Positions 1,815 to 41,710 of a stretch of DNA of 42,407 bases are shown one piece after another. The notes under the pieces are model-generated. The model was not told where the DNA came from and ran no database searches. It saw only the letters and a program-made list of their open reading frames with translations. Location: IMG/VR virus record IMGVR_UViG_2565956608_000007, positions 1-42,407 of that record; one strand, 5' to 3'. How positions within the stretch are numbered: the first letter of the stretch is position 1; every line of letters begins with the position of its first letter. Source of the stretch: a virus. Taxonomy: Duplodnaviria; Heunggongvirae; Uroviricota; Caudoviricetes. The translations under genes were made by a program, and so were the position numbers.

Positions 1815-2987
1815 CTACAGCGCGGCTGAAATCGCGGTTTTACCGTCATATTCAGCCAGGTATTTACCGTAGTTGCGGAATATCATTTCCGGCCCTTTGT
1901 GGCCCATCTGTCCGGCAAGCCAGAATAGGTTAACGCCCTGGCTAATATGCTTGGTGGCGAATGTGTGCCGCGTCTGGTACGGGTTACGATAGCGCACGCC
2001 AGCTTTTTTCAGGGTCGGCACCCATGCTTTTTTACGGATAGCGTCGGCGTTCGCCCAGGGGTCTCCCGTTTTCGGGTCGCTGAATATGAACTCACTTTTC
2101 ATGAAGGTGTATTGCTTCTGCGCCTGCAGGGCCGCCAGCGCCTCACTGTTCAGCTCCACCTTTCGGGTACCGGCTTTTGTCTTGGTGCCTTTAAGTACCC
2201 CTACGACACTGGCCGCCTGAACGTGGGCTGTGTTCGCGATGGTGTCGAGATCAGGCCAGCGCAGCGCGCACAGTTCGGAGCTCCGCAGACCGGTATTGAA
2301 AGCAAAGCGGAACAGGTTTTCCCATTCCGGGTACCTGCAGCTCTGGTAAATGGCGAGGGTCTCCGCTGGCGTGAACGGGTCAACCTCGTAATCGTCGGCG
2401 CTCGGGCTGCTGTCGATCACGTGGTACCGGCTGGCGCTGACGAGGGTTACCGGGTTAATGGTCAGCAGGCCATCCGTAACAGCTTCATCGATGGCGCTGC
2501 GCAGAAATGAAAGGTTATTCCTGGTCGTTTTCAGTTTTGTTTTCCGGCTGGCTATCCAGTTTTTAAGGACCGCTGGCGTCAGTTCTGACACGTGGAGTTT
2601 ATGCAGGGCTGACAGCGCCGACAGGCATTTTTCATAACCGTTGATAGTCGACGGGGACAGGTTGCGGTTCTGGCAGATTTTCAGGTACTCGTCCAGGTAA
2701 GACTTTATGTTTTTGGTTTTCTTCACCACCCCGAACAGCTCCAGTTTTTTGGAGTTGGGGAAATATTTCGCATATTCAAAGGTGCCACTGACGATCTGGT
2801 TTTGTATCTCCCCGAGCAGGCGCTCGGCGTACTTAACACCGCGCGCGTTTGCTTCCATTTTGGAGAGGGGCTCCCGGCACAGAACCCCTTTGTATGTGAA
2901 AGTGATAACCAGAGTGTCGCCAGTTTTATGCTGGCGGATGGTTACTCCTCTTGGGAGAGATAATGATCCTTGTTCTTTCTTGCCCAC
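1815..2987 (-). CDS. int: tyrosine integrase (lambda-type site-specific recombinase)
   Basis: 390-aa ORF with C-terminal R..HxxR..Y catalytic signature (RHTFATKHI ... RNYGKY); 3' end abuts attL. Confidence 0.9.
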   Translation of the reverse strand: MGKKEQGSLSLPRGVTIRQHKTGDTLVITFTYKGVLCREPLSKMEANARGVKYAERLLGEIQNQIVSGTFEYAKYFPNSKKLELFGVVKKTKNIKSYLDEYLKICQNRNLSPSTINGYEKCLSALSALHKLHVSELTPAVLKNWIASRKTKLKTTRNNLSFLRSAIDEAVTDGLLTINPVTLVSASRYHVIDSSPSADDYEVDPFTPAETLAIYQSCRYPEWENLFRFAFNTGLRSSELCALRWPDLDTIANTAHVQAASVVGVLKGTKTKAGTRKVELNSEALAALQAQKQYTFMKSEFIFSDPKTGDPWANADAIRKKAWVPTLKKAGVRYRNPYQTRHTFATKHISQGVNLFWLAGQMGHKGPEMIFRNYGKYLAEYDGKTAISAAL

Positions 2988-6957: not shown

Positions 6958-7315
6958 TTACGGAAAGGTGTCGTCTGAGTTTTGGTTAGACCAGAACGGC
7001 AACAAATGGAAAGTGCCCACGATCAAAGGTCGCCTGAAAATGCGCGTACCCTGCCATCGCGCACTACGCGAATTTGTTCTTTGGCGCGACGGTTTCAAAT
7101 GCCGTCATTGTGGTAGTCAAGACCGCATTAAATTGGTCGCAGATCACATTGTATCGCGACGTAACGGTGGGGCTCACCACCCAGACAACATGCAGTGTTT
7201 GTGTGATTCCTGCAATGCGCGCAAGGCATCCCTGGTTGATGCCAAATTCCAGCCAAGGCCTGATGTAAGTGAGGTTATTTGTTCTGATGGAGGGGTGATT
7301 GATGGCACGCATTAG
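6950..7315 (+). CDS. HNH endonuclease
   Basis: Cys/His motif CRHCG ... DHIVSRRNGGAHHPDNMQCLCDSCNARK; GGAGG ribosome-binding site. Confidence 0.75.
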   Translation: MRDYGKVSSEFWLDQNGNKWKVPTIKGRLKMRVPCHRALREFVLWRDGFKCRHCGSQDRIKLVADHIVSRRNGGAHHPDNMQCLCDSCNARKASLVDAKFQPRPDVSEVICSDGGVIDGTH

Positions 7316-8312
7316 AACAATTAAACCTGAGTTCTGGACTGATGAGAAGATTGTCGAATGCTCATTTGAGGCGCGCCTGATGTTTATCGGAATGTTCAAT
7401 TTTGCCGACGACAAAGGCAATCTGGTGCGCTCCCCGAAGCGTATCAAGATGCAGATTTTCCCTGCGGACATGATCGACTGCGAGCCGTTAATTAAAGAAC
7501 TTAGCCTGGCTGGGTTAATCAGTGAGTATTCAGTGAATGGTGTTGAATATATTCACATTGATGGTTTTTCTAAACACCAGAAAATTAACCGACCATCCGC
7601 AACAACAATACCTACTCCAGAAGAAGTCGCTGATAGCTCACGGAAACCAGCACCTAATTACATGGATGGTTCAGTGAATGATGATGAAAAACAAACATAT
7701 GATTCACATGCAAGCAATGGAGTTAACACTGAGGACTCACTGAGTGCTCACGGCGAACTCACTGACGGAAGGGAAAGGAAGGGAAGGGAAGAGGAAAGGA
7801 ATAAAACTAATTTGTCCGATTCGAATCGGACTGATGGCGATAAACCTGACGAGTCGAAAGGGAAACCTTCACAGGAAAAACCTGATTCAGAATCAGATGA
7901 TGCTGAAGGCCAAGATCCAGTCGATGTCGCTTTCGAAAATATTTTTTGGGGGGCAGGTCTGAGAAAGGATGCCAAGGTCAAGGCTAAGTCAGCGTTCAGG
8001 ACCAAATATCGCGACTGGAAAAAAGCGAACCGAGGTACGCCTGAGAACTTCGCCGTTATGCTGGCTGAAGATATCAGCCTCCGGGTGAAAACACAGCAAA
8101 TGGGGTTCGACAAACTCCTGCCAGCGTCATACCTGAACGGAGAGCGCTGGAACGATGAAAAACCAAATGGAGCTCCTCAGATATCCGCAAGCGCAAACGC
8201 CATCGGTGGGACAGGGGCTTCCTGGTTCGCAAAACCAAGTGACGGTTCGGCTGAGGTATTTATCAGCCAGGCAGCCATTGACCGCATGAAGCGCGGAGCT
8301 AACCGCCCATGA
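7302..8312 (+). CDS. putative replication initiation / replisome organizer protein
   Basis: N-terminus ARIRTIKPEFWTDE resembles conserved phage replication-protein N-domains (recalled, not searched); position upstream of the primase-helicase; acidic low-complexity linker. Confidence 0.5.
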   Translation: MARIRTIKPEFWTDEKIVECSFEARLMFIGMFNFADDKGNLVRSPKRIKMQIFPADMIDCEPLIKELSLAGLISEYSVNGVEYIHIDGFSKHQKINRPSATTIPTPEEVADSSRKPAPNYMDGSVNDDEKQTYDSHASNGVNTEDSLSAHGELTDGRERKGREEERNKTNLSDSNRTDGDKPDESKGKPSQEKPDSESDDAEGQDPVDVAFENIFWGAGLRKDAKVKAKSAFRTKYRDWKKANRGTPENFAVMLAEDISLRVKTQQMGFDKLLPASYLNGERWNDEKPNGAPQISASANAIGGTGASWFAKPSDGSAEVFISQAAIDRMKRGANRP

Positions 8313-8415
8313 AAAGAATCCTCAAACGTCTACTGGTTGCTGGCTATAACCGCGGCTTTTTGCGTGAGGAATTCGTGACTATGTGCTTTATAAAATTCGA
8401 TTTACGGAGTGTGTG

Positions 8416-10287
8416 ATGACCCCTGCTGAGTTATCTGAAAAATTGTGGGACAACGCCGAAAGAGTTGCGAAATACCTGCTTCCACGAGGACACCTCGAGG
8501 GCAAGGAGTGGTGCGCTGGTAATACCAATGGTGATGCCGGTAAGAGCCTGAAAATCAATCTCGGGGGTAAGAAGACTTGGGCGGATTTTGCAAGCGGCGA
8601 CAGCGGAGACCTGCTGGATCTTTGGGTGTTGGTGCGTAACTGCCAACTGCACGACGCTATGCGAGAAGCGAAAGAGTTCCTTGGGCTGAAGGACGACGAT
8701 AACCACTTTGAGGCAAAGAAGAAGACCTTCTCTCGCCCAACCAAAAAAGGCGTTAAAAAGGCGAGTCATTGCTACGACTACCTGGCTTCCCGTGGTATCA
8801 CCCGGGAGACAGCCGATCAATTCCGTGTTTCGGATGCAGTTGTCTGGTACCACGATGAAAACCGCGAAATTCCGGCAGTAGCGTTTCCGTATCTTCGCAA
8901 TGGCGAGCTGTTGCAGGTAAAGCGAATCGGCACTGAACGACCAAATGGCAAAAAGTTGATCATGGCTGAGGCGGATTGCGAACCATGTCTGTTTGGCTGG
9001 CAGGCTATGGACGCGAAAGCCCGAGCTGTTGTGCTTTGCGAAGGAGAGATTGACTGTATGACCTACTCGCAATTCGGTATCAGTGCTCTATCGGTACCGT
9101 TCGGCGGGGGAAAAGGTGCCAAACAGCAGTGGATCGAATACGAGTATCACAACCTCGACCGATTCGAAGAAATTTGGTTAAGCCTCGATAACGATGATGT
9201 TGGGCGGGAAGCCGCAAAAGAAATTGCTCGCCGTCTGGGTGAGCATCGTTGCCGCCTGGTAGAGCTGCCGCACAAAGATATCAACGAATGCCTAACTGCC
9301 GGGGTGAGCGAGGATGAAATCTGGCAATACTTAGGGACCGCTAAATTCTTTGACCCTGATGAACTCTGTTCTGCGGGTGATCTCCTTCAGGAAACACTGG
9401 ATGCATTCGAACATCGAGATGTTGGGTTATTTTCCAGCCCGTGGGATTCGCTGAACAATAATTTTAAATTCCGAGCCGGTGAACTGACGCTGGTTAACGG
9501 AGTGAACGGCCACGGTAAAACCGAGCTGGTGGGGCATATCGCAGTCAATGCCATGAGCCAAGGAGTTCGCGTATGCATTGCATCGCTGGAACTTAAGCCT
9601 GGGAAAATGTTGGCTCGTCTTACCCGGCAAACCATTTGCAGAAAAAACCCAGAACGTACTGAAATTATCATGACTAACGAGTGGTTTTCTGATCGTCTTT
9701 GGGTGTTCAAGCTCACCGGAACAGCAAAGGCCGGTCGTCTGTTGGAAATATTTGCCTATGCCAGACGCCGTTATGGAATCGATCTTTTCGTAATCGATAA
9801 CTTGGCAAAATGTGGGCTCGATGAAGAGGACTACGGTGGTCAGAAAGAATTTATCGATACCCTCTGCGACTTCAAAAATGAGCACAACTGCCATGTTCTG
9901 CTGGTAACGCATGCCAGAAAAACAAACGAAGCTGCACCAACAGGGAAAATGGATGTTAAAGGCACTGGCGCTTTAACCGACATGCCCGACAACGTTATGG
10001 CCGTCTGGCGTAATATCCCGCGAGAACTGGCGCAGCGCAAGGCTGAAAGAATGGGGTATGAGAGCCTTGATAAGGACGAGCAGACTGCTATCCAAATGCC
10101 CGCCTCAATGATTCGCCTGTTGAAACAACGTGAAGGGGAAGGCTGGATCGGAGACATAGGAGCCAATTTTGATTCCAGATCACATCAGTTTATCGAGGGT
10201 GATAAAGGGCCCTTCAATTACTTGGCTGGCAAACAGCAAAGTGAACTTGATATTGAGTGGGAAGCCACCAACGCAACGAGGTATTAA
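8416..10287 (+). CDS. bifunctional primase-helicase (Toprim domain + DnaB-like P-loop helicase)
   Basis: Toprim motif VVLCEGEIDCMTY; Walker A GVNGHGKTE and Walker B DLFVIDNL; GGAG ribosome-binding site before ATG at 8416. Confidence 0.8.
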   Translation: MTPAELSEKLWDNAERVAKYLLPRGHLEGKEWCAGNTNGDAGKSLKINLGGKKTWADFASGDSGDLLDLWVLVRNCQLHDAMREAKEFLGLKDDDNHFEAKKKTFSRPTKKGVKKASHCYDYLASRGITRETADQFRVSDAVVWYHDENREIPAVAFPYLRNGELLQVKRIGTERPNGKKLIMAEADCEPCLFGWQAMDAKARAVVLCEGEIDCMTYSQFGISALSVPFGGGKGAKQQWIEYEYHNLDRFEEIWLSLDNDDVGREAAKEIARRLGEHRCRLVELPHKDINECLTAGVSEDEIWQYLGTAKFFDPDELCSAGDLLQETLDAFEHRDVGLFSSPWDSLNNNFKFRAGELTLVNGVNGHGKTELVGHIAVNAMSQGVRVCIASLELKPGKMLARLTRQTICRKNPERTEIIMTNEWFSDRLWVFKLTGTAKAGRLLEIFAYARRRYGIDLFVIDNLAKCGLDEEDYGGQKEFIDTLCDFKNEHNCHVLLVTHARKTNEAAPTGKMDVKGTGALTDMPDNVMAVWRNIPRELAQRKAERMGYESLDKDEQTAIQMPASMIRLLKQREGEGWIGDIGANFDSRSHQFIEGDKGPFNYLAGKQQSELDIEWEATNATRY

Positions 10288-15849: not shown

Positions 15850-15917
15850 GTGAGCCTGAGGAGCATCGTTAAAGGTGGCGACCTCTCTCGGGCGGTGCTC
15901 CTGTACGACAGGCTCAC
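15850..15917 (+). promoter_or_regulatory. long interrupted inverted repeat in the 5' leader of the cargo operon
   Basis: GTGAGCCTG/AGGAGCA pairs with TGCTCCT/CAGGCTCAC around a ~28-nt loop; ends 5 nt before the AAGGAAA ribosome-binding site. Confidence 0.45.
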
Positions 15918-15934
15918 ACCTTAAAGGAAACGCA

Positions 15935-16363
15935 ATGAAGAAATTTTTCACTGATGCGATAGCAAAAATAACTTTTTACGCGCTGCTCGCCGCTTTGCTA
16001 TTTGCTGTTACTACAGGGGCCGGTTCTTTATTGAGAGTAGTTGCCGCCGCCTACTGGGTGATCGTATTGCTTGGCGCGGTAGTTGGTTTGTTAGCTCTCA
16101 TTATTACGTTTGGTGTCGAGTATTCAAAGGATGATAAGTCCAGGCGGGAGGGTATTGAATACCTTGAACGCTTTGCTAAGCGCAAGAACGCAATAGCAAG
16201 AGTATGGGGATGGTTCTGCCTGGTGCTGGGTGCTTCCATGCTTGCATACGGTGGGTGGGTGTTTACAGCGGTAGCCTACGTAATAGCGTCATTGTTTGTG
16301 CGCCTGTGCTGTTCGCTTGCTCGTGATAAGGTCGAGAAACTAACCAAAAAAGAGGTGGCTTGA
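15935..16363 (+). CDS. integral membrane protein of unknown function
   Basis: 142-aa ORF from ATG 15935, about four hydrophobic segments. Confidence 0.6.
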   Translation: MKKFFTDAIAKITFYALLAALLFAVTTGAGSLLRVVAAAYWVIVLLGAVVGLLALIITFGVEYSKDDKSRREGIEYLERFAKRKNAIARVWGWFCLVLGASMLAYGGWVFTAVAYVIASLFVRLCCSLARDKVEKLTKKEVA

Positions 16364-17024: not shown

Positions 17025-18029
17025 ATGGCTTCGATAAAAGAATCCACTGATGCCAATGGACAATCAAAATATTACGTCCACTGGAAGGATGAAAAATCCG
17101 GTCATGGACGCCGCCGCATTTTTAAGAATATTGATGATGCCGCACATCTTTTCTGGCAAAAACAGAATATCGAGCTGGATTGTCGAACTGCCAGCTGGAC
17201 CGGAATAGACCATTCCTGGACTTTCCGAAAGTTAATTCTGTTTTATCTGGGGTATCAGGCCGGCAAGCTGGAAAAAAATATCATACGGCTGTCGTCATAT
17301 ACGAAATGCCGTCACGATCTTCTCGCGGTAGACGGGCCGATACTGGAAAAAAATATTCTCCATATCAGCCATCGTGATATCGGTGATTCGGTTCGCACCG
17401 GCTGCCATCGCTGGATTCGTTCGGCTTTCTTCCTGCTGGTGGAAAAACGACTCATCGCTTTTAACCCTGTTGACCGTCCCGCGCGCCGGAAGCGTCGACC
17501 CATCACCATACCGCCATCATCATCGGTCAGGGAGCTACTGAATAACGCGCCAGTTCGTGAGCGTATCGCGTGCTGGCTCGGGATTTGTGGCCTGCGAATC
17601 GGTGAGGCTCTGGCGGTTACGTATAACGACGTGTCAGCCGACTGGATCGACATCCGGGGGCATGTTGTTGACGGCGTTATACATGAGGGGCTGAAAAGAG
17701 GAGTGGAGCGCCGGGTACGGATGCCGCGTGAGCTTTTCGCGTTGCTGGATAAAAGTAAACTCGGTACCTCTGAGCCTCTTATCTGCAACCAGTTTACCGG
17801 CACATGCCTCGCTACCAGCTACGGCACTCAGGGCGTTCTCGTCAGAACCCTGAACGACTATGGCATTAAGCGATTCCATCATCTTCGCCACTTTGCTGTA
17901 TCTCGCCTGGCAAACAAAGGCGTCGATATCCTGAAGGTTTCCCGACTTATTGGGCATTCGAACATCAAAACCACAATGGACGTTTACGGTCACCTGTTCG
18001 GTGAAGTGGTGGAGATGGATTTGGACTGA
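17025..18029 (+). CDS. second tyrosine recombinase / integrase embedded in the prophage
   Basis: C-terminal HHLRHFAVSRLANKGVDILKVSRLIGHSNIKTTMDVYGHL (HxxR ... Y signature); GAGGA ribosome-binding site. Confidence 0.85.
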   Translation: MASIKESTDANGQSKYYVHWKDEKSGHGRRRIFKNIDDAAHLFWQKQNIELDCRTASWTGIDHSWTFRKLILFYLGYQAGKLEKNIIRLSSYTKCRHDLLAVDGPILEKNILHISHRDIGDSVRTGCHRWIRSAFFLLVEKRLIAFNPVDRPARRKRRPITIPPSSSVRELLNNAPVRERIACWLGICGLRIGEALAVTYNDVSADWIDIRGHVVDGVIHEGLKRGVERRVRMPRELFALLDKSKLGTSEPLICNQFTGTCLATSYGTQGVLVRTLNDYGIKRFHHLRHFAVSRLANKGVDILKVSRLIGHSNIKTTMDVYGHLFGEVVEMDLD

Positions 18030-18033
18030 GTTA

Positions 18034-18067
18034 TCCACATAGTGGAAATATTAGGGCGATCCACTAT
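18034..18067. repeat. TCCAC-containing near-palindrome (TCCACataGTGGA) and extra TCCAC half-site just 3' of the second recombinase
   Basis: Read directly; starts 5 bp after the recombinase stop. Confidence 0.4.
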
Positions 18068-18121
18068 CTCCCCATTCTGCGCGGCCTCCGGTCATTAAAT
18101 CGCAGTTTTCCCGAAAAAAAG

Positions 18122-18215
18122 GATATGCCGCATTTTTACCCCCTCTGATATGCCGCACTTGGCACCAGAGAGGACGCGGCCTGCACGCCAGAATTTACCG
18201 CGTGATACGCCGCAC
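18122..18215. repeat. three direct repeats of GATAYGCCGCA upstream of terS
   Basis: Copies at 18122, 18147 and 18204, spaced 25 and 57 bp. Confidence 0.6.
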
Positions 18216-18273
18216 CCGGATCGGAGAAATTGGATTTTGAACAAAAAATAATCACATTGACTTAGGCGGAAGT

Positions 18274-18876
18274 ATGGCTCCTAAAAAAAGCTTCAGAAAA
18301 GCCTACGTCGGTATCGTTATGGACATGGCATTAGCCCGTAGCAAAATCAGCAATCGGATGGTTGCTCAGCGCTTAGGTGTGGACGAGACGACGATCCGTC
18401 GCTGGCGTAAAGAGAATATCGAGTTTGAGCGCGCTTTCACTGAGGCTCGCGAAGCTCTCAGAGAGAAAATAAACCGCGTCGCCGGTAAGAGCCTGGACGT
18501 TCGTAAACGGAAGGTTGTCACCACATCGCCGGATGGTGTGAAAACCACGATTGAAGATGTGCTGCCCACGCACAACGATATTGCTGTTTTCTCAAAGGTG
18601 CTCGGTCTTGGTACCAGCGTCTATAGCGAGGAAGAACGTCAGCGTGATGTGCTTCGCGAGGTGATGAAACATAAGGTAGCCGGGAAATACTCCGCGCTGG
18701 AGGCGGCGCAGCTGCTTGAGGCTGAGGGAGTAAAAGTTCCGGCAACCCTGCTTATGGAGCTGGGAGCACCGAAAATTTTCGAACCGTTCAACAATATGGA
18801 CGAGGCAGCCAAAGCCGACGCGGCGAACCTGACCCCGCAGGAAGCAGCCGATATCTACAAAAAAATCCTGGGCTGA
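18274..18876 (+). CDS. terminase small subunit (HTH-containing)
   Basis: 200-aa ORF immediately upstream of terL with N-terminal HTH (RMVAQRLGVDETTIRRWRKEN). Confidence 0.55.
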   Translation: MAPKKSFRKAYVGIVMDMALARSKISNRMVAQRLGVDETTIRRWRKENIEFERAFTEAREALREKINRVAGKSLDVRKRKVVTTSPDGVKTTIEDVLPTHNDIAVFSKVLGLGTSVYSEEERQRDVLREVMKHKVAGKYSALEAAQLLEAEGVKVPATLLMELGAPKIFEPFNNMDEAAKADAANLTPQEAADIYKKILG

Positions 18877-19022
18877 AAATTGCAAAAACAGGCGTTTCGA
18901 ACCGTAAAAACGCTATGCACTTTTTGACCCGTTTTATGCACGTTTTATTCATCCCGATTTGACCACTTTTCTGTTCAAAACAGAGGCTTCACGCCGTTTG
19001 CGTGATGGGTGCTGTTGCGCCA

Positions 19023-19073
19023 GTGCGGGTAACGACCATTATGTTAAATCGGGGCGTTTTTGAGGAATTTTTC
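19023..19073 (+). promoter_or_regulatory. conserved ~50-bp element, copy 1 (GTGCGGGTAA-N6-TTATGTTAAAT ...) upstream of terL
   Basis: Near-identical to 22918-22968; contains ATG of a short MLN... uORF. Confidence 0.5.
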
Positions 19074-20691
19074 TGTGCCGATCCCGTTCCCCTTTGACTT
19101 CCGCAAACCGGACTATACCGCCGTGTTTGAGTGGAGAATGGAGAGGCTGGAGCGGATCAGGAAAGCGCCTGAAATGCTTCCGGCACTCCGTGAGTTTTAC
19201 CGCACTAACCCGGCTCAGTTCATCATCGACTGGGGTATGACGACGGACCCGCGTAACCTCGATTATGGCCTGCCTGCCACCATCCCGTTTTTGCTGTTCC
19301 CCCGCCAGGAGGAATGGATTAACTGGATCATGGACAGGCGCGCAAGTCTTGAGCATGGACTGACAGAAAAAAGCCGCGAAATGGGGCTGAGCTGGACCTC
19401 TATCGGTCTGGCCTGTTCGCTTTGCCTGTTCAACAAAGAAATGGTGATCGGGTTCGGTTCCCGTAAAGAGGAATATGTCGATAGCACCGGCGACCCGAAA
19501 GCGCTGTTCTGGAAGGCACGGAAGTTTGTCGAGCTGCTGCCGGTTGAGTTTCGCGGTTCATGGAGTGACAAAAAACATGCCCCTTACATGCGCGTGGAGT
19601 TCCCGGAAACGGGCGCGGTCATTAAGGGAGAGGCTGGCGATAACATTGGCCGTGGTGACCGTACCACGCTTTATTTCGTGGATGAGTCGGCATTTCTCAA
19701 ACGGCCATTACTCATCGATGCTGCGCTCTCTCAGACGACCCGCTGCCGTATAGACCTCTCATCCGTCAACGGCATGAATAACCCGTTTGCCCGTAAGCGC
19801 CACAGCGGAAATATCCCGGTGTTTACGTTCCACTGGCGCAGCGACCCGCGCAAGGATGATGAGTGGTACCGCAACGAATGTCTGAAAATTGATGATCCGA
19901 TTATCGTTGCTCAGGAACTGGACCTGAACTACAGCGCATCCACAGAGGGGATCCTCATTCCTTCTGAATGGGTGCAGGCTGCCGTCGATGCGCATATCAA
20001 ACTGGGTATTCAGCCCAGTGGCCAGCGCCTCGGCGCAATGGATATCGCAGACGAAGGGAAAGACAAAAACGGCTTTTCTTGCCGCTATGGCTTCCTTCTG
20101 CAGAACGTTCACGAATGGTCTGGCATTGGCAGCGACATCTACGCTTCTGTCGTTAAATCGTTTGGGTACTGTGACGATTACGGTCTGGATGAGTTCCGTT
20201 TCGATGAGGACGGTCTGGGTGCTGGTGCGCGTGGCGATGCTCGCGTGATAAACGAGCTCAGGCAGGCTGAAGGCCGGGGAACAATCACAGCTACGCCTTT
20301 CCGTGGTAGCGGTAGCGTATTCGATCCGGAAGATGAAGCCGTCCCTGGTGATAACGGTAAAGCGGCGCGCCTGAATAAAGACTTCTTCGCGAACGCGAAA
20401 GCACAGAGCTGGTGGCATCTTCGCAAGCTGTTTCGAAACACCTTCCGCGCGCTGAACGGGATGGACTACAACCCCGACGAAATCATTTCGATAAGCAGCG
20501 AGATAGAAAATATTGACCGCCTGCTGATGGAGCTTTCACAGCCTACATGGTCGAAAAACGCCGTCGGTAAAATCCTCGTGGATAAACAGCCGGAAGGTAC
20601 AAAATCGCCGAACCTCGCCGACGCCGTGATGATTAACTACGCGCCGATGGATTCCTCTCTTGATAATTGGGCCAAACTGGCCGGAGCGTGA
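19060..20691 (+). CDS. terminase large subunit
   Basis: 543-aa ORF with ATPase Walker B-like YFVDE and nuclease region; TTG start from the ORF track, true start uncertain. Confidence 0.85.
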
Positions 20692-20692
20692 C

Positions 20693-22162
20693 ATGTCCCG
20701 TAAGAAACGCCAGAACGGCGCACAAAAGCCCGTTGCGACAGCTGACGGGTACAACAATTTCACGGCCAAACTTGGCAGCGACACCAGAAACATACAGACG
20801 GGCGGAATGTACATGCCCGGGTACATCAGCCGTAACAGGGTGATGCTGGAGTTTGCGTATCGTTCATCGTTCCTCGTTGGTGCCGGTGTGGACGCGATGG
20901 CTGATGATATGACCCGCAAGGGGATTAACATCAGCTCAAAGCTGAAACCTGGACAAAAGGGCAAGCTCGAAACCTTCTGGGATGAGCTCGCTATATGGGA
21001 TGGTCTTAACGATAACCTCAAATGGTCACGATTATACGGTGGCGCGGTGCTGGTGGTCCTGCTTGAAGGGCAGGATATGTCCTCTCCCCTGAAACTGGAT
21101 CGCATCAAAGAGGGGCAGTTTAAGGGAGTGATGAGCCTTGACCGCTGGATGGTTAACCCGAGTTATTACGATCTCGTTACCGATTACGGTCCCGATTTTG
21201 GGAAACCGAAATATTACAAGGTAATCACGAACCAGCAGGGGATTCCCCCCTGGAAGATCCACCATAGCCGCGTTATCCGCATGGAGGGCGATACGCTTCC
21301 TTTCCAGCAGGCCCAGACGGAAAACGGCTGGGGGATGTCTGTTGTGGAGCGTATTTTCGAGCGTATCGAGGCGTTTGATACTGCGACCGTCGGCACCACA
21401 CAGCTGATCCACAAAGCGCATCTGCGAACCTACAGCATTGAAGACCTGCGCAAGATTCTTGCTACCGGAGGCGACCTTGAAAAGGCGCTGATGAAGCACC
21501 TGGACATGATACGTCAGTTCCAGACCATCGAAGGCATGACCATCATGGATGGTAAGGATAAGTTCGAAACCCACAGCTATACGTTTGCGGGTATCGCTGA
21601 TGTCCTTCTGCGCTTTGCTGAGCAGGTTTCCGGCGCGACGGGAATTCCTCTCGTCCGTTTGTTCGGGCAGTCCCCTGCAGGTTTCAACACCGGCGACGGC
21701 GATCTGGAAAACTACTACAGCCGGGTTAACTCGCTGCAGGAGAGACGCTTACGCCGCCATATCCGCTGGTTGCTCGATATCTCCTGGCGTTCTCTGTTCG
21801 GTGAGCCACTGCCTGATGATTTTACTTTCGAGTTTAACAAGCTCTGGGAGATGTCAGACGTGGACCGTGCAACGATGGCGAACAATGTGGTTACTGCACT
21901 CGGTACCGCCGTTCGTGACCTCGGAATGCCTCCGGCAGCCGCGCTTAACGACCTCAGGAACATTTCTGATGTGATTGGGATCGGTGGTTCTATCACTGAC
22001 GAGGACATAGAAGATGCGAAGGCCCAGTGGGAGGAGGATGAACCTGAAACCATCCCTCCGCCGCCGTTCGGAGATCCAGTATCGAAAAAGCCTGTTGGCG
22101 ATAGCAAACCAGATAGGGCAGATCGTCGATGGTACCTACGATGGTTCACAGGCCAGCGCTGA
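20693..22162 (+). CDS. portal protein
   Basis: About 490-aa ORF directly after terL; portal-like size and position; start set at ATG 20693. Confidence 0.7.
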   Translation: MSRKKRQNGAQKPVATADGYNNFTAKLGSDTRNIQTGGMYMPGYISRNRVMLEFAYRSSFLVGAGVDAMADDMTRKGINISSKLKPGQKGKLETFWDELAIWDGLNDNLKWSRLYGGAVLVVLLEGQDMSSPLKLDRIKEGQFKGVMSLDRWMVNPSYYDLVTDYGPDFGKPKYYKVITNQQGIPPWKIHHSRVIRMEGDTLPFQQAQTENGWGMSVVERIFERIEAFDTATVGTTQLIHKAHLRTYSIEDLRKILATGGDLEKALMKHLDMIRQFQTIEGMTIMDGKDKFETHSYTFAGIADVLLRFAEQVSGATGIPLVRLFGQSPAGFNTGDGDLENYYSRVNSLQERRLRRHIRWLLDISWRSLFGEPLPDDFTFEFNKLWEMSDVDRATMANNVVTALGTAVRDLGMPPAAALNDLRNISDVIGIGGSITDEDIEDAKAQWEEDEPETIPPPPFGDPVSKKPVGDSKPDRADRRWYLRWFTGQR

Positions 22163-22766
22163 CAGCATTTCGAAAACGCTGGTGGACTATTCCGAGGTAA
22201 TCAGCGACTGGGCAGAGCAGGTCGGGCGAAGGATGTTTGCCCAGGTCGAGCAGGAGGAATGGAACCTGTGGAAATCGGTATCAGAGGAAATCGGCGCTGG
22301 CCTGCGCGATGTGGTGGGTAATACCCCCGTCGGTCAGGTGGCGCAGGATATCGTGTATCGCCAGATTCAGCTGATGAAGTCCCTGCCGCTGGAAGCAGCC
22401 GATCGCGTGATGGACATACAACAGCGCGCAATGCAGGCGGTTATCAGTGGCGAACGTCCGGACGAGCTCTACGAGATGATCATGGCCTCCGGTGACGTGG
22501 CCGCCAGCAGGGCGCAGCTGATTGCCCGTACAGAGATTGGACGTGCTACCGGCGCGCTGACGCAGGCCAGAGCCCTTTCGGTTGGCTCAGAGGGCTACTG
22601 GTGGCGTATTGAGGGGGCCGGAACGCGGGATTCTCACCGCAAGATGAAAGATAAATTTGTGCGCTGGGATAACCCGCCGACGCTGGACGGTATGATCGGA
22701 CACGCCGGATGTTTGCCGAACTGCAAATGCTGGCCTGAAGTACAGATTCCAGCACCGAGAAAATGA
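22014..22766 (+). CDS. Mu F-like head morphogenesis protein
   Basis: C-terminal motif GMIGHAGCLPNCKCW typical of MuF/SPP1 gp7 proteins; 5' end overlaps the portal ORF by 149 nt, start uncertain. Confidence 0.65.
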   Translation: MRRPSGRRMNLKPSLRRRSEIQYRKSLLAIANQIGQIVDGTYDGSQASADSISKTLVDYSEVISDWAEQVGRRMFAQVEQEEWNLWKSVSEEIGAGLRDVVGNTPVGQVAQDIVYRQIQLMKSLPLEAADRVMDIQQRAMQAVISGERPDELYEMIMASGDVAASRAQLIARTEIGRATGALTQARALSVGSEGYWWRIEGAGTRDSHRKMKDKFVRWDNPPTLDGMIGHAGCLPNCKCWPEVQIPAPRK

Positions 22767-22917
22767 AAAATACGGCTTTGAGCATTCATTTCATGCGAAC
22801 TGCAATACCCGCGAAATGTTATGAAAATGTTGTATTCGAAAAGGCCGATTTTCAGCCCAGTTAATCGCTACTTTTACGGCTTTAAGGGGACATTTTAATC
22901 GAGTTCATTTTCGTCGG

Positions 22918-22968
22918 TGCGGGTAAGAACCCTTATGTTAAATAGCCCGTTATTTCGAACATTTTTCC
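22918..22968 (+). promoter_or_regulatory. conserved ~50-bp element, copy 2, upstream of the protease/scaffold gene
   Basis: Matches 19023-19073: identical 10-mer and 11-mer blocks plus a similar downstream tract. Confidence 0.5.
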
Positions 22969-22979
22969 CATCTCACAAG

Positions 22980-23002
22980 GTCGCCTCCGGGCGGCCTTTT
23001 TG
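22980..23002 (+). terminator. Rho-independent terminator
   Basis: GGTCGCC-TCCG-GGCGGCC followed by TTTTT. Confidence 0.5.
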
Positions 23003-23027
23003 TTGCCCGTAATCGAGCAGGTAACCC

Positions 23028-24825: not shown

Positions 24826-25773
24826 ATGTTTACAATTGACAGAGCGACCATCGACTCCACCGGCGCGTTTCTCGTCGGCGAACTGGAGCGCATGGATCAG
24901 ACGCTGAACATGCCTTTAGTGTCCTACAAATGGTCACGCGACATGCCGCTGCGCAGCGACATTTCTATCGCTGATGAAGTGTCATCCTTCACTAATACCG
25001 ATTTCGTGGGCGTTGGTGGTCCAAACCCTAACGGTAAAAACTGGATCGGCAAAAAAGCTACTGCCATTCCTGGTATCGAACTCGATATTCAGCCTACCCG
25101 TAACAACCTCACCTTGTGGGGGCAGGAAATCAGCTGGACGGTGCCGGAACTGGCTTCTGCCCAGAAACTGGGCCGTCCGGTTGATGCCCAGAAATACGAA
25201 GGCATGAAACTGAAGTGGAACATGGACACCGACGAACAGGTTTATATCGGTGATAACGAGCTCGGCGTTGCTGGCCTGCTGAACCTGCCGGATGTTACTC
25301 CTGTTGCTGCAGCTGCAGCGTGGACCGCAACCACCGATCCGGATGTGATTGTTCAGGATATCAACCTGGTACTGTCTGATGGCTGGGTTCGTTCTGGTTA
25401 TGCGGTCTGCCCGGCGAAAATCGGTCTGGCGCCGGAGCTGTTCGGCCTGCTGGCGAGCAAAAAGGTTTCCTCTGCAGGGAATATCTCTGTGCTGGAATAC
25501 GTGAAGATTAACACCATCGCGTTTCAGGAAAACGGTACACCACTGGAGATCGTCTCCATGAAGTGGGCCTCCAAGCGTGGCGCTGGTGGCGCGCATCGTA
25601 TCGTTGCTTACACCCAGGACGAAAAATACGTTCGCTTCCCTATGGTTCCTCTGCTGAACACGCCGCTGGAGTATCGCGGCCTGCAGCAGCTGACCACTTA
25701 CTACGGCAAGCTGGGCCAGGTGGAAACCCCGTATTCCAATACGATCTCTTACCTGGACGTTCCGGCGTCTTAA
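24826..25773 (+). CDS. major capsid protein
   Basis: 315-aa ORF in the capsid position, followed by a strong terminator. Confidence 0.6.
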   Translation: MFTIDRATIDSTGAFLVGELERMDQTLNMPLVSYKWSRDMPLRSDISIADEVSSFTNTDFVGVGGPNPNGKNWIGKKATAIPGIELDIQPTRNNLTLWGQEISWTVPELASAQKLGRPVDAQKYEGMKLKWNMDTDEQVYIGDNELGVAGLLNLPDVTPVAAAAAWTATTDPDVIVQDINLVLSDGWVRSGYAVCPAKIGLAPELFGLLASKKVSSAGNISVLEYVKINTIAFQENGTPLEIVSMKWASKRGAGGAHRIVAYTQDEKYVRFPMVPLLNTPLEYRGLQQLTTYYGKLGQVETPYSNTISYLDVPAS

Positions 25774-25782
25774 CCTGAAACA

Positions 25783-25805
25783 GGCGGGGAAACCCGCCTT
25801 TTTTT
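25783..25805 (+). terminator. Rho-independent terminator after the capsid gene
   Basis: GGCGGG-GAAA-CCCGCC followed by TTTTTTT. Confidence 0.65.
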
Positions 25806-25819
25806 ATGGAGCAAAAAAC

Positions 25820-39624: not shown

Positions 39625-40668
39625 TCATATTAAAGCTTTTCGTAAAAGCGTCTTCCCAATTAAAACACCTTTTCGCTCTACAGTTTTATGCGCAAAATAA
39701 CAAACTATAAATAACAATGTTAATATTTGAATGTTGCTGTTGATATATGGGATTTGTAATTTTGAAACCACTAGTGACAAAGTATACCAAATCCAGTTAT
39801 GGAACAAGTATACAGCATAAGTCATTTCAGACAGTAAATTGCATGCTTTGGATTCAATGAATTTATCTCTAAACAACCACGAAACAAGGAAAATAATAAC
39901 TCCTGTAAATGCGTAGTTGTACTGGCCCCAGAATGGATTTATTTTCTCAATGAGAGATAAATGCAGATAGAACATAATTACGATGGATGCTAAAGCAATA
40001 ACCCGATTAACTAACTTATGCTCTACAAGATACACTACTACACCGATAAACAAAAATGGCGTATACAATGTAAAGTAAGCATTATGAAAATCATTAGCCA
40101 CAGGGAAAGGGTTAATGCTGGATATAAAAAACGATACAACAAGAAGGAGAACAGTCAAAACGTTTCCTTTGTTTATTATACCAGCTTTTTTAACTAATCC
40201 CATAAACACGTAGAACATCATTTCTATTCTTAGTGTCCATTCTACGCCAGCTAATGAAAGTGGAGTGTTAAAGAAATCACCTATGAGCAAAAGTCTTGGG
40301 ATTAGTATAGTTAGAGGTGGAACACCAGCACCGTTATAATACTGAACTAACATTTCTGCAATAACTGCAAAAATGTATAAAGGATATATTCTAAAAATCC
40401 TTTTTAAATAAAATTCAAAAGTTGCTTCTTTTTGTAAAACGTGGGTTATGATATATCCTGAAACAAGAAAGAAGATTACAACCCCCATAGCCCCACCGAA
40501 ACTGGCATCGGCAAGTAGACCGTAAAATGATCTAAGTGTTACGTGGTTACTTGGATCGCTCGCCCACGAAGCTAAATCTTTGTTGAACTTGTGGCCTAAC
40601 ACCACAAGAGAGAATGCAAAGATACGCATGTAATCTAAAAAAAGAATTCTACGATTGTTCATTTTCAT
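39625..40668 (-). CDS. acyltransferase family 3 membrane protein (OafA/Oac-like O-antigen acetyltransferase)
   Basis: About 347-aa polytopic membrane protein with acyltransferase-3-type N-terminus (RILFLDYMRIFAFSLVVLGH); markedly AT-rich; located between tail genes and attR. Confidence 0.75.
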   Translation of the reverse strand: MKMNNRRILFLDYMRIFAFSLVVLGHKFNKDLASWASDPSNHVTLRSFYGLLADASFGGAMGVVIFFLVSGYIITHVLQKEATFEFYLKRIFRIYPLYIFAVIAEMLVQYYNGAGVPPLTILIPRLLLIGDFFNTPLSLAGVEWTLRIEMMFYVFMGLVKKAGIINKGNVLTVLLLVVSFFISSINPFPVANDFHNAYFTLYTPFLFIGVVVYLVEHKLVNRVIALASIVIMFYLHLSLIEKINPFWGQYNYAFTGVIIFLVSWLFRDKFIESKACNLLSEMTYAVYLFHNWIWYTLSLVVSKLQIPYINSNIQILTLLFIVCYFAHKTVERKGVLIGKTLLRKALI

Positions 40669-40809
40669 CAAAATCTTATTGTTGATGAGGCTATTTTATA
40701 GCATGAACAGCGAAATTCATAACAGGTTGGTGGTTGGGGTGGTGAAAAATCTCATCATGGAAGAAAAATCTGGCTGTCAGCGTTTATTAATGCTGGCAGC
40801 CAGCACATT

Positions 40810-41347: not shown

Positions 41348-41710
41348 TGGTGGAGCTGGCGGGAGTTGAACCCGCGTCCGAAATTCCTACATCCTCGGTA
41401 CTACATGCTTAGTCAGTCTTTACATTCGCTTGCCAGCTGCGGACGGACACGCCACTAACAAACTAGCCTGATTAAGTTTTAACGCTTCAACCCCAGGCAG
41501 GGCTTCCACGCGATCTCTTTTGGGTTTGACCTCTCTTGATCCCCGTCCTAAGAGCGGAGGCTAGGGAGAGAGGGCTCTAAGCAGGTTATTAAGCTGCTAA
41601 AGCGTAGTTTTCGTCGTTTGCGACTATTTTTTGCGGCTTTTTACGAGGCCAACCGCCCCTCGGCATGCACCTTGGGTTTCGCAAATCCCGTCGAATCCAG
41701 AATCAGCCCC
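41348..41710 (-). ncRNA. ssrA: tmRNA (transfer-messenger RNA, SsrA)
   Basis: Minus-strand sequence begins GGGGCTGATTCTGGATTCGACGGG and ends ...GGTTCAACTCCCGCCAGCTCCACCA; 363 nt; directly downstream of smpB. Confidence 0.95.
41355..41384. repeat. attR core inside ssrA (GCTGGCGGGAGTTGAACCCGCGTCCGAAAT)
   Basis: 29/30 identical to 1663-1692. Confidence 0.65.

Follow-up and report, generated by a model that had tools for sequence, protein, structure and literature searches.

The window, by which we mean the whole 42,407-nt stretch of DNA that was analysed, holds a prophage of approximately 40 kb located between csiD (1-978) and the ssrA tmRNA gene (41348-41710) with smpB. The prophage carries its own integrase for the ssrA site and a Q-type antiterminator for late transcription. 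Downstream of the lysis genes (endolysin at 15875-16363), the prophage has a second, internal tyrosine recombinase gene, which is followed by a non-coding gap, a candidate small terminase gene (terS), the large terminase gene (TerL) and a portal gene (PF06381 by Pfam). The features discussed below are as follows.

1815-2987, minus strand: the prophage's own integrase for the ssrA site, with an Arm-DNA-bind_2 domain
17025-18029, plus strand: internal tyrosine recombinase (Pfam Phage_integrase, residues 182-327)
18030-18273: gap between the recombinase and terS, 244 nt
18030-18109, plus strand: recombinase-side conserved block, between the recombinase stop codon and the repeats
18110-18670, plus strand: putative specificity cassette, comprising the repeat region and the first 100-130 terS codons
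18122-18132, plus strand: repeat 1, GATATGCCGCA, with an A7 tract before it and T5 after it
18147-18157, plus strand: repeat 2, GATATGCCGCA, starting 25 nt after repeat 1
18204-18214, plus strand: repeat 3, GATACGCCGCA, starting 57 nt after repeat 2
18237-18248, plus strand: TTGAACAAAAAA element, past repeat 3 and ahead of the ribosome-binding site of terS
18274-18876, plus strand: terS, candidate small terminase of 200 aa with an N-terminal helix-turn-helix (HTH), directly upstream of TerL
19075-20691, plus strand: TerL, large terminase with a GTG start (PHROG terminase large subunit)

An Acyl_transf_3 acyltransferase gene (39625-40671, minus strand) follows the tail-fibre genes at the end of the prophage nearest ssrA and is likely a surface-polysaccharide-modifying moron.

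The three direct GATAYGCCGCA repeats that an earlier note had pointed out upstream of terS are the sole exact matches to this motif on either strand of the window, compared to 0.04 matches expected by chance per window and approximately 1e-4 per gap (composition-based estimate). A repeat search of the window recovered them as one three-copy family of 13 nt, (G/T)GATAYGCCGCA(T/C), and A7, T5 and A6 tracts flank the copies. The array is real and non-random. The gap length of 245 bp given previously is essentially right, but the repeats are not evenly organised as had been described, with start-to-start spacings of 25 vs 57 nt. Replication iterons were considered and rejected, as the initiator and primase-helicase genes are located approximately 8 kb away (7299-10287) and the motif is absent there.

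Of the ORFs between the lysis genes and TerL, that of the 200-aa protein alone could encode a TerS. The AlphaFold2 model of the protein has a mean pLDDT of 76.6, rising above 90 over residues 11-60, and places the HTH in a helix at residues 27-34 and a recognition helix at residues 38-47 (ETTIRRWRKE, nt 18385-18414); beyond the HTH it shows a long helix, then a beta-hairpin and helical repeats. None of the curated TerS families in Pfam, PHROGs or NCBIfam reaches threshold on this protein: Pfam returned only HTH hits below threshold, including a weak excisionase-type HTH_17, and PHROGs placed it in a family of unknown function with weak hits to three TerS families. A sequence search of the PDB gave no significant match and fold searches gave generic HTH matches only. 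With 50 representative clusters at E <= 1e-3 among 1.84 billion proteins, this is a small family. The best 120 homologues come from Enterobacter, E. coli, Salmonella and Citrobacter, and are unnamed or labelled "hypothetical protein", with the exception of one JGI label of "predicted oxidoreductase".

TerL lies directly downstream of terS in nearly every locus that reaches far enough. The last 36 residues of the protein (..TPQEAADIYKKILG) align with the C-terminus (..SPQDVAEAYKKLMG) of a PGAP-annotated TerS from E. coli EC2001 with 39% identity, although the two proteins are otherwise unrelated. In EC2001, terS is followed by the same spacer and TerL start, 96.7% identical to the window over 245 nt. 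A test for a TerL-interaction segment thus found both the gene position immediately upstream of terL and a shared C-terminal tail. Because no curated family names the HTH protein as TerS, we infer this identity from its context, and on these contextual grounds we accept the 200-aa protein as the putative TerS. This assigns a function to a protein that has been left as "hypothetical" by the sources of these best 120 hits.

To examine conservation, a TerS scan of IMG/VR yielded 56 loci, GTDB genomes (Enterobacter, Citrobacter, Pseudocitrobacter, Pantoea and Erwinia) added seven, and a metagenome scan added about 20. The metagenome scan was anchored on the conserved flanks AAATCGCAGTT...TTTGAACAAAA and was blind to the repeat letters; it returned classes 1 and 2 (described below) and unrelated chance matches only, with no new classes and no exceptions. 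Locus scans with P0124 and P0131 gave no viral loci. The three sites are found at -152, -127 and -70 relative to the terS ATG in nearly all of approximately 45 distinct loci, and a column count over 36 unique upstream sequences shows the repeats as near-invariant blocks, the best conserved of the gap, separated by variable DNA. The earlier note had held that repeats not conserved in phages with homologous terS would speak against a function; in such phages they are conserved. The Y position is C at repeat 2 in some lineages (L049-L051 and L070).

The loci fall into three classes according to the sequence of the predicted TerS recognition helix, and each helix class is paired with its own site class.

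Class 1: helix DETTIRRWRKE (residues 37-47), 31 unique loci, GATAYGCCGCA-type sites
Class 2: helix DEATIRNWRKE, 13 unique loci, three WYTCCGCA sites in 13 of 13
Class 3: helix DEITIRRWRKD, one contig, GATATGTCGCA at all three sites

Class 1 shows the plain three-site array in 29 loci, and repeat 1 is at -152 in 29 of the 31 unique loci. The variants are L069, which has CATATGCCGCA at site 1, and L033 with its genomic twin L068 (counted as one unique entry), which has a rearranged array with two inverted copies. In this pair, from Trabulsiella odontotermitis, site 1 is degenerate (GGAAATGCCGCA) and site 3 intact, and the middle segment is 48 nt longer and contains the inverted copies (the reverse complements of CGCCGCATTT and GATATGCCGCAC); these mixed orientations resemble lambda cosB. 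The class-2 sites are ATAACTCCGCA, TTAATTCCGCA and ATTATTCCGCA, with a spacing of 24 and 57 nt. Class 2 and L054 have an inverted half-site 7 nt downstream of repeat 3, which the window lacks or keeps only in degenerate form. In class 3 the same C-to-T change is found in all three copies, with the remainder of each motif untouched.

The pairing of helix class and site class has no exception in approximately 45 unique loci, and within every class all three copies change in concert. The varying residues T39, R43 and K46 occupy positions i, i+4 and i+7 of the predicted recognition helix (residues 38-47). The change T39I is paired with C to T in the sites, and R43N together with T39A is paired with GCCGCA to TCCGCA. 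Across the compared sequences, the sites track the predicted TerS recognition helix, as would be the case for a protein paired with its cognate sites. There have been few independent specificity switches, with class 2 probably representing one event and class 3 represented by a single contig. Because of this, some of the co-variation could reflect hitch-hiking within a diverged cassette; hitch-hiking alone is insufficient, because it would not homogenise three separate copies.

Sliding identity comparisons revealed the extent of the unit that differs between classes. In four class-2 loci (L035, L036, L047 and L052), identity to the window is 95-100% on either side, in the recombinase gene on one side and the 3' part of terS, TerL and portal on the other. 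Between these flanks is a zone of 54-79% identity, which covers approximately 18105-18570 in L035 and approximately 18105-18670 in L036, L047 and L052. Because the divergence is confined to the repeats and the predicted TerS DNA-binding domain while the flanks are near-identical, the aligned sequences indicate that repeats and N-terminal domain are inherited as one unit with sharp boundaries. The unit looks like a cassette that can be swapped between phage lineages. It would act as a packaging-specificity cassette exchanged between related phages, with the C-terminal part of TerS staying with its TerL.

The left edge of the cassette is marked by AAATCGCAGTT (18097-18107), which is invariant among related loci. 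The block at 18030-18109 is unchanged in class-2 loci and stays on the recombinase side of the mosaic junction. It contains an inverted repeat, ATAGTGGA-N13-TCCACTAT, at 18039-18046 and 18060-18067. In L034 and L051, whose recombinases are divergent, a different sequence takes the place of the block's left part and again includes an inverted repeat. A search of the block for a lox-like core found just this 8-bp inverted repeat with its 13-nt spacer, and comparison of the divergent loci added nothing conclusive. The block could be a recombinase site or a terminase cleavage region. On the terS side, the TTGAACAAAAAA element is invariant in the 36 unique upstream sequences and is also found in class 2 and in L063. 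Neither an IHF consensus (18030-18273, one mismatch allowed) nor a sigma-70-like promoter was found in the gap, and the terminator-like hairpins are located elsewhere. The window has two copies of the heptamer GCGGCCT at a distance of 95 nt, one in the recombinase-side block (18081-18087) and the other between repeats 2 and 3 (18176-18182); the pair and its spacing are retained in L062 as GCGGCCTGTGAGC and GCGGCCTGCAAGC.

More distant members of the family (TerS 22-45% identical) have lineage-specific repeats in the same gap.

Erwinia phage LS-2018a: TerS 38% and recombinase 31% identical, TCGATTYTTACGA twice
L063 and L064: recombinase 72% and 42% identical, GAAMTTCCGAG three to five times, direct and inverted
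L072 and L073: TerS approximately 22% and recombinase 25-27% identical, AATTAATGTACA twice and AATTAATTAACACG three times (one inverted)

Every locus with enough flank, including L061, L063, L064, L072 and L073, has a tyrosine recombinase homologue as the immediate upstream neighbour of terS. The order recombinase-repeats-terS is therefore kept even where identity falls to 25-31% for the recombinase and 22-38% for TerS. L063 and L064 carry an extra short ORF of 109-125 aa (1603-1980 and 2010-2339, respectively) between the repeats and the full-length TerS, with a TerS-like N-terminal HTH (helix DESTIRNWRE) and a Thr/Arg-rich tail. Judging from its sequence, this ORF is a tandem duplication of the putative TerS DNA-binding domain. 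We had considered these two loci as a fourth class and dropped them as a clean point of co-variation, as the extra copy of the N-terminal domain intervenes; the binder is ambiguous there because two HTH proteins lie downstream of the repeats.

Two database records required separate treatment. Yersinia phage YP3 (PV092592.1; L002 and L059) appeared at first to be a natural experiment in which the recombinase lacked repeats, terS had four of them and a 75-bp block was duplicated. Comparison by blastn showed that the record is scrambled relative to the window and we rejected it. Though deposited as a "complete genome", it is made up of shuffled blocks, either CDS-plus-flank or intergenic, with duplicates that overlap; part of it reads, in window coordinates, 17025-18104, 19076-20691, 22764-23027, 25773-25813 and 20691-22748. 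The block order looks like an assembly or processing artefact and, because the record is scrambled, we treat its fourth repeat and its repeat-less recombinase junction as artefacts. The second record is Elizabethkingia phage EKP1 (OM284015.1; L001), which has 79% nucleotide identity over recombinase-terS and a TerL that is 84% identical to that of this prophage family. EKP1 is reported on a Flavobacteriia host, while the family is otherwise seen only in Enterobacterales, and its host assignment may deserve a second look.

The nuclease domain of TerL matches Sf6 gp2 (E 1e-23) and another large terminase (E 1e-27) in the PDB. Its relatives include those of phages SEN34, yong1, Magia and BcepB1A, and no close relative with experimentally typed ends was found. 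Because the nuclease domain resembles that of Sf6 gp2, packaging is probably of the pac (headful) type. The spacer between terS and TerL (18877-19074) is non-coding and unusually long (198 nt), and contains CGTTTTAT twice (18930 and 18941) and TTTGACC twice (18923 and 18958). The 3' part of this spacer travels with TerL, as seen in its 96.7% identity in E. coli EC2001 despite the unrelated terS. Three independent metagenomic viral contigs (L004, L031 and L037) have their ends 23, 16 and 82 nt before the ATG of terS, at or just past repeat 3. These ends could be real DNA ends, assembly breaks or the result of provirus trimming, and are a weak hint of cleavage.

The earlier note had offered three readings of the repeats, and the one that finds support is that they are pac-type TerS recognition sites, since their letters co-vary perfectly with the TerS helix and they are inherited with it as one cassette. 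From these comparisons we consider it very probable that TerS binds the repeats as such, and likely, with somewhat less confidence, that the repeats serve as TerS recognition sites for the initiation of packaging. We infer the physical binding, the initiating role, the location of the cut and the preference for pac over cos. Under this model, a TerS oligomer would bind the three-site array through its N-terminal HTH domains late in infection. Wrapping or bending of the DNA around the oligomer is suggested because the 25/57-nt spacing is fixed and A/T tracts flank the sites. Binding would mark the phage DNA as self, and the C-terminal part of TerS would recruit TerL and position it for an initiating cut nearby, with the 18030-18109 block and the terS-terL spacer as candidate regions. 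After this cut packaging would proceed, probably by the headful mechanism.

A first alternative is that the same HTH protein autoregulates transcription or translation of terS and TerL from these sites, and that the packaging signal is elsewhere, e.g. inside terS as in P22 and Sf6. The co-variation and the cassette data are equally compatible with an operator, and the sites are located 60-150 nt upstream of the start codon. However, the lack of a sigma-70-like promoter in the gap argues against it, as does the setting of these genes among co-oriented late genes behind a Q-type antiterminator, where readthrough is expected. Three sites in the same orientation over 93 nt are also unlike a typical dimer operator. 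We therefore regard an operator in place of a packaging site as unlikely, and note that the two roles are not mutually exclusive and can coexist.

A second alternative shares TerS binding with the preferred reading and gives it another purpose. Repeat-bound TerS would be an architectural or directionality factor for the recombinase, acting in the 18030-18109 block, and the repeats would belong to a combined recombination-packaging nucleoprotein complex. The conserved inverted repeat in the block, the weak HTH_17 hit of the TerS HTH and the gene order kept to such low identities are in its favour. No recombination product is seen in any locus, however, and the synteny could be plain vertical inheritance within one phage lineage, and we judge this alternative to be unlikely, slightly more so than an operator. 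A broader idea is somewhat more plausible than either, although still improbable: the late-transcribed tyrosine recombinase, the site region and terS may form a three-part module that couples site-specific recombination to packaging. This idea arises because the gene order is strict to 22-31% identity and the inverted-repeat block is conserved. The module may be a Cre/lox-like system at the packaging origin, with its site in the terminal redundancy, that circularises the injected DNA, or it may make or resolve multimers to supply headful substrates; repeat-bound TerS may then organise both reactions. The second recombinase has no specific similarity to Cre.

The repeats could also be bound by a factor from outside the cassette, either a late regulator of the phage or a host protein. 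Late-regulator sites had been another of the readings proposed previously and nothing was found in their support, with a gap that lacks a promoter-like site in a phage that has a Q-type antiterminator. The loci cover 1.5-3 kb on either side, which leaves formal room for a co-varying gene farther away. Against this, class-2 loci are 95-100% identical to the window within 3 kb on both sides, barring a variable lysis-side module, and their differences are confined to the repeats and the N-terminal domain of TerS. Lineage-specific changes made in concert would not be accounted for by a host factor, and the gap has no IHF consensus. We consider binding by such a factor very unlikely.

The remaining proposal of the earlier note, that the repeats are arm-type sites for the internal recombinase, taken here as those of an attP-like region, is the least probable of all and we reject it because the repeat class does not follow the recombinase, either overall or in its N-terminal 60 aa. 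Direct 11-mers beside a tyrosine recombinase gene are the classical picture of arm sites, the recombinase may have a small beta-sheet DNA-binding domain at its N-terminus (YYVHWKDEKSGHGRRRIF...), and the order recombinase-repeats-terS is deeply conserved. Nevertheless, class-1 repeats accompany recombinases that are 55-99% identical to that of the window overall and 38-100% identical over the N-terminal 60 aa, whereas class-2 repeats occur with recombinases of 74-99% overall identity (90-100% over the N-terminal 60 aa where measured), including some that are 97-99% identical and yet sit beside different repeats. The class-3 contig has a recombinase that is 70% identical. The mosaic junction also separates the repeats from the recombinase-linked block, Pfam detected no arm-binding domain in this recombinase, and the ssrA prophage has its own integrase. 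In the window prophage, as in E. coli and other chromosomes, the stretch from recombinase through gap to terS is uninterrupted and lies inside the prophage; it is never split, as an attP would be on integration.

Base-specific DNA recognition by pac-type small terminases is poorly understood, and SPP1/SF6 is the best-studied case. This widespread prophage family of Enterobacteriaceae offers a natural system with three conserved sites and at least three specificity variants, in which helix differences of one or two residues are paired with differences of one or two bases in all sites. For lambda and 21, such pairs have been studied by swap experiments. It also helps to predict pac sites, and hence the start points of transduction, in these prophages.

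Among known systems, the closest functional analogue of the array appears to be lambda cosB, and the closest pac-type analogue appears to be SPP1 pac. In lambda, the sites R3, R2 and R1 lie upstream of Nu1 and are bound by the winged HTH of TerS (gpNu1), and the cosB R sites of lambda, 21 and N15 vary together with the recognition helix of their TerS (PMC4669245). The window resembles this arrangement in having three short motif copies in non-coding DNA immediately upstream of terS, an N-terminal HTH of TerS as the predicted reader, and helix residues and site bases that change together. It differs from lambda in that all copies have the same orientation, whereas R2 is inverted in lambda, and in that there is no IHF consensus between the sites, whereas lambda has an IHF site between R3 and R2. 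In addition, the nuclease domain of the window TerL resembles Sf6 gp2 with no lambda-type terminase among its PDB matches, neither a cosN nor a cohesive end was identified in the window, and its TerS has no detectable homology to gpNu1 beyond a generic HTH.

In SPP1 and SF6, pac (pacL with boxA and boxB, pacC and pacR, read by G1P) includes direct repeats that span the promoter and the start of gene 1, and the TerS is an oligomer with N-terminal HTH domains for which DNA wrapping has been proposed (PMC4737164). The repeats were expected to be TerS sites, yet they are just moderately conserved between the two phages and the isolated DNA-binding domain bound weakly and non-specifically (PMC4737164). 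Because of this behaviour of the SF6 domain, repeats near terS are not in themselves proof of specific binding. The direct repeats at terS and an oligomeric HTH TerS with wrapping, the latter two being proposed here, are shared with the window. The fold match of the window TerS to SF6 TerS (3zqq) was not significant. Unlike the SPP1/SF6 repeats, those of the window are strictly conserved and co-vary with the helix, and we therefore argue for a base-specific reading.

The pac site of the headful phage P1 consists of hexamer repeats inside pacA that are bound by PacA and regulated by Dam methylation of the hexamers, and cre/loxP is located a few kb away. The window is similar to P1 in having repeated short motifs near a predicted small terminase gene with a tyrosine recombinase gene close by; unlike P1 pac, its repeats are upstream of terS and have no GATC, and a search of the 18030-18109 block gave no lox-like core beyond the 8-bp inverted repeat. 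Packaging-site repeats beside terS are a known kind of signal, and what is new here is an unannotated TerS family with clear natural specificity variants.
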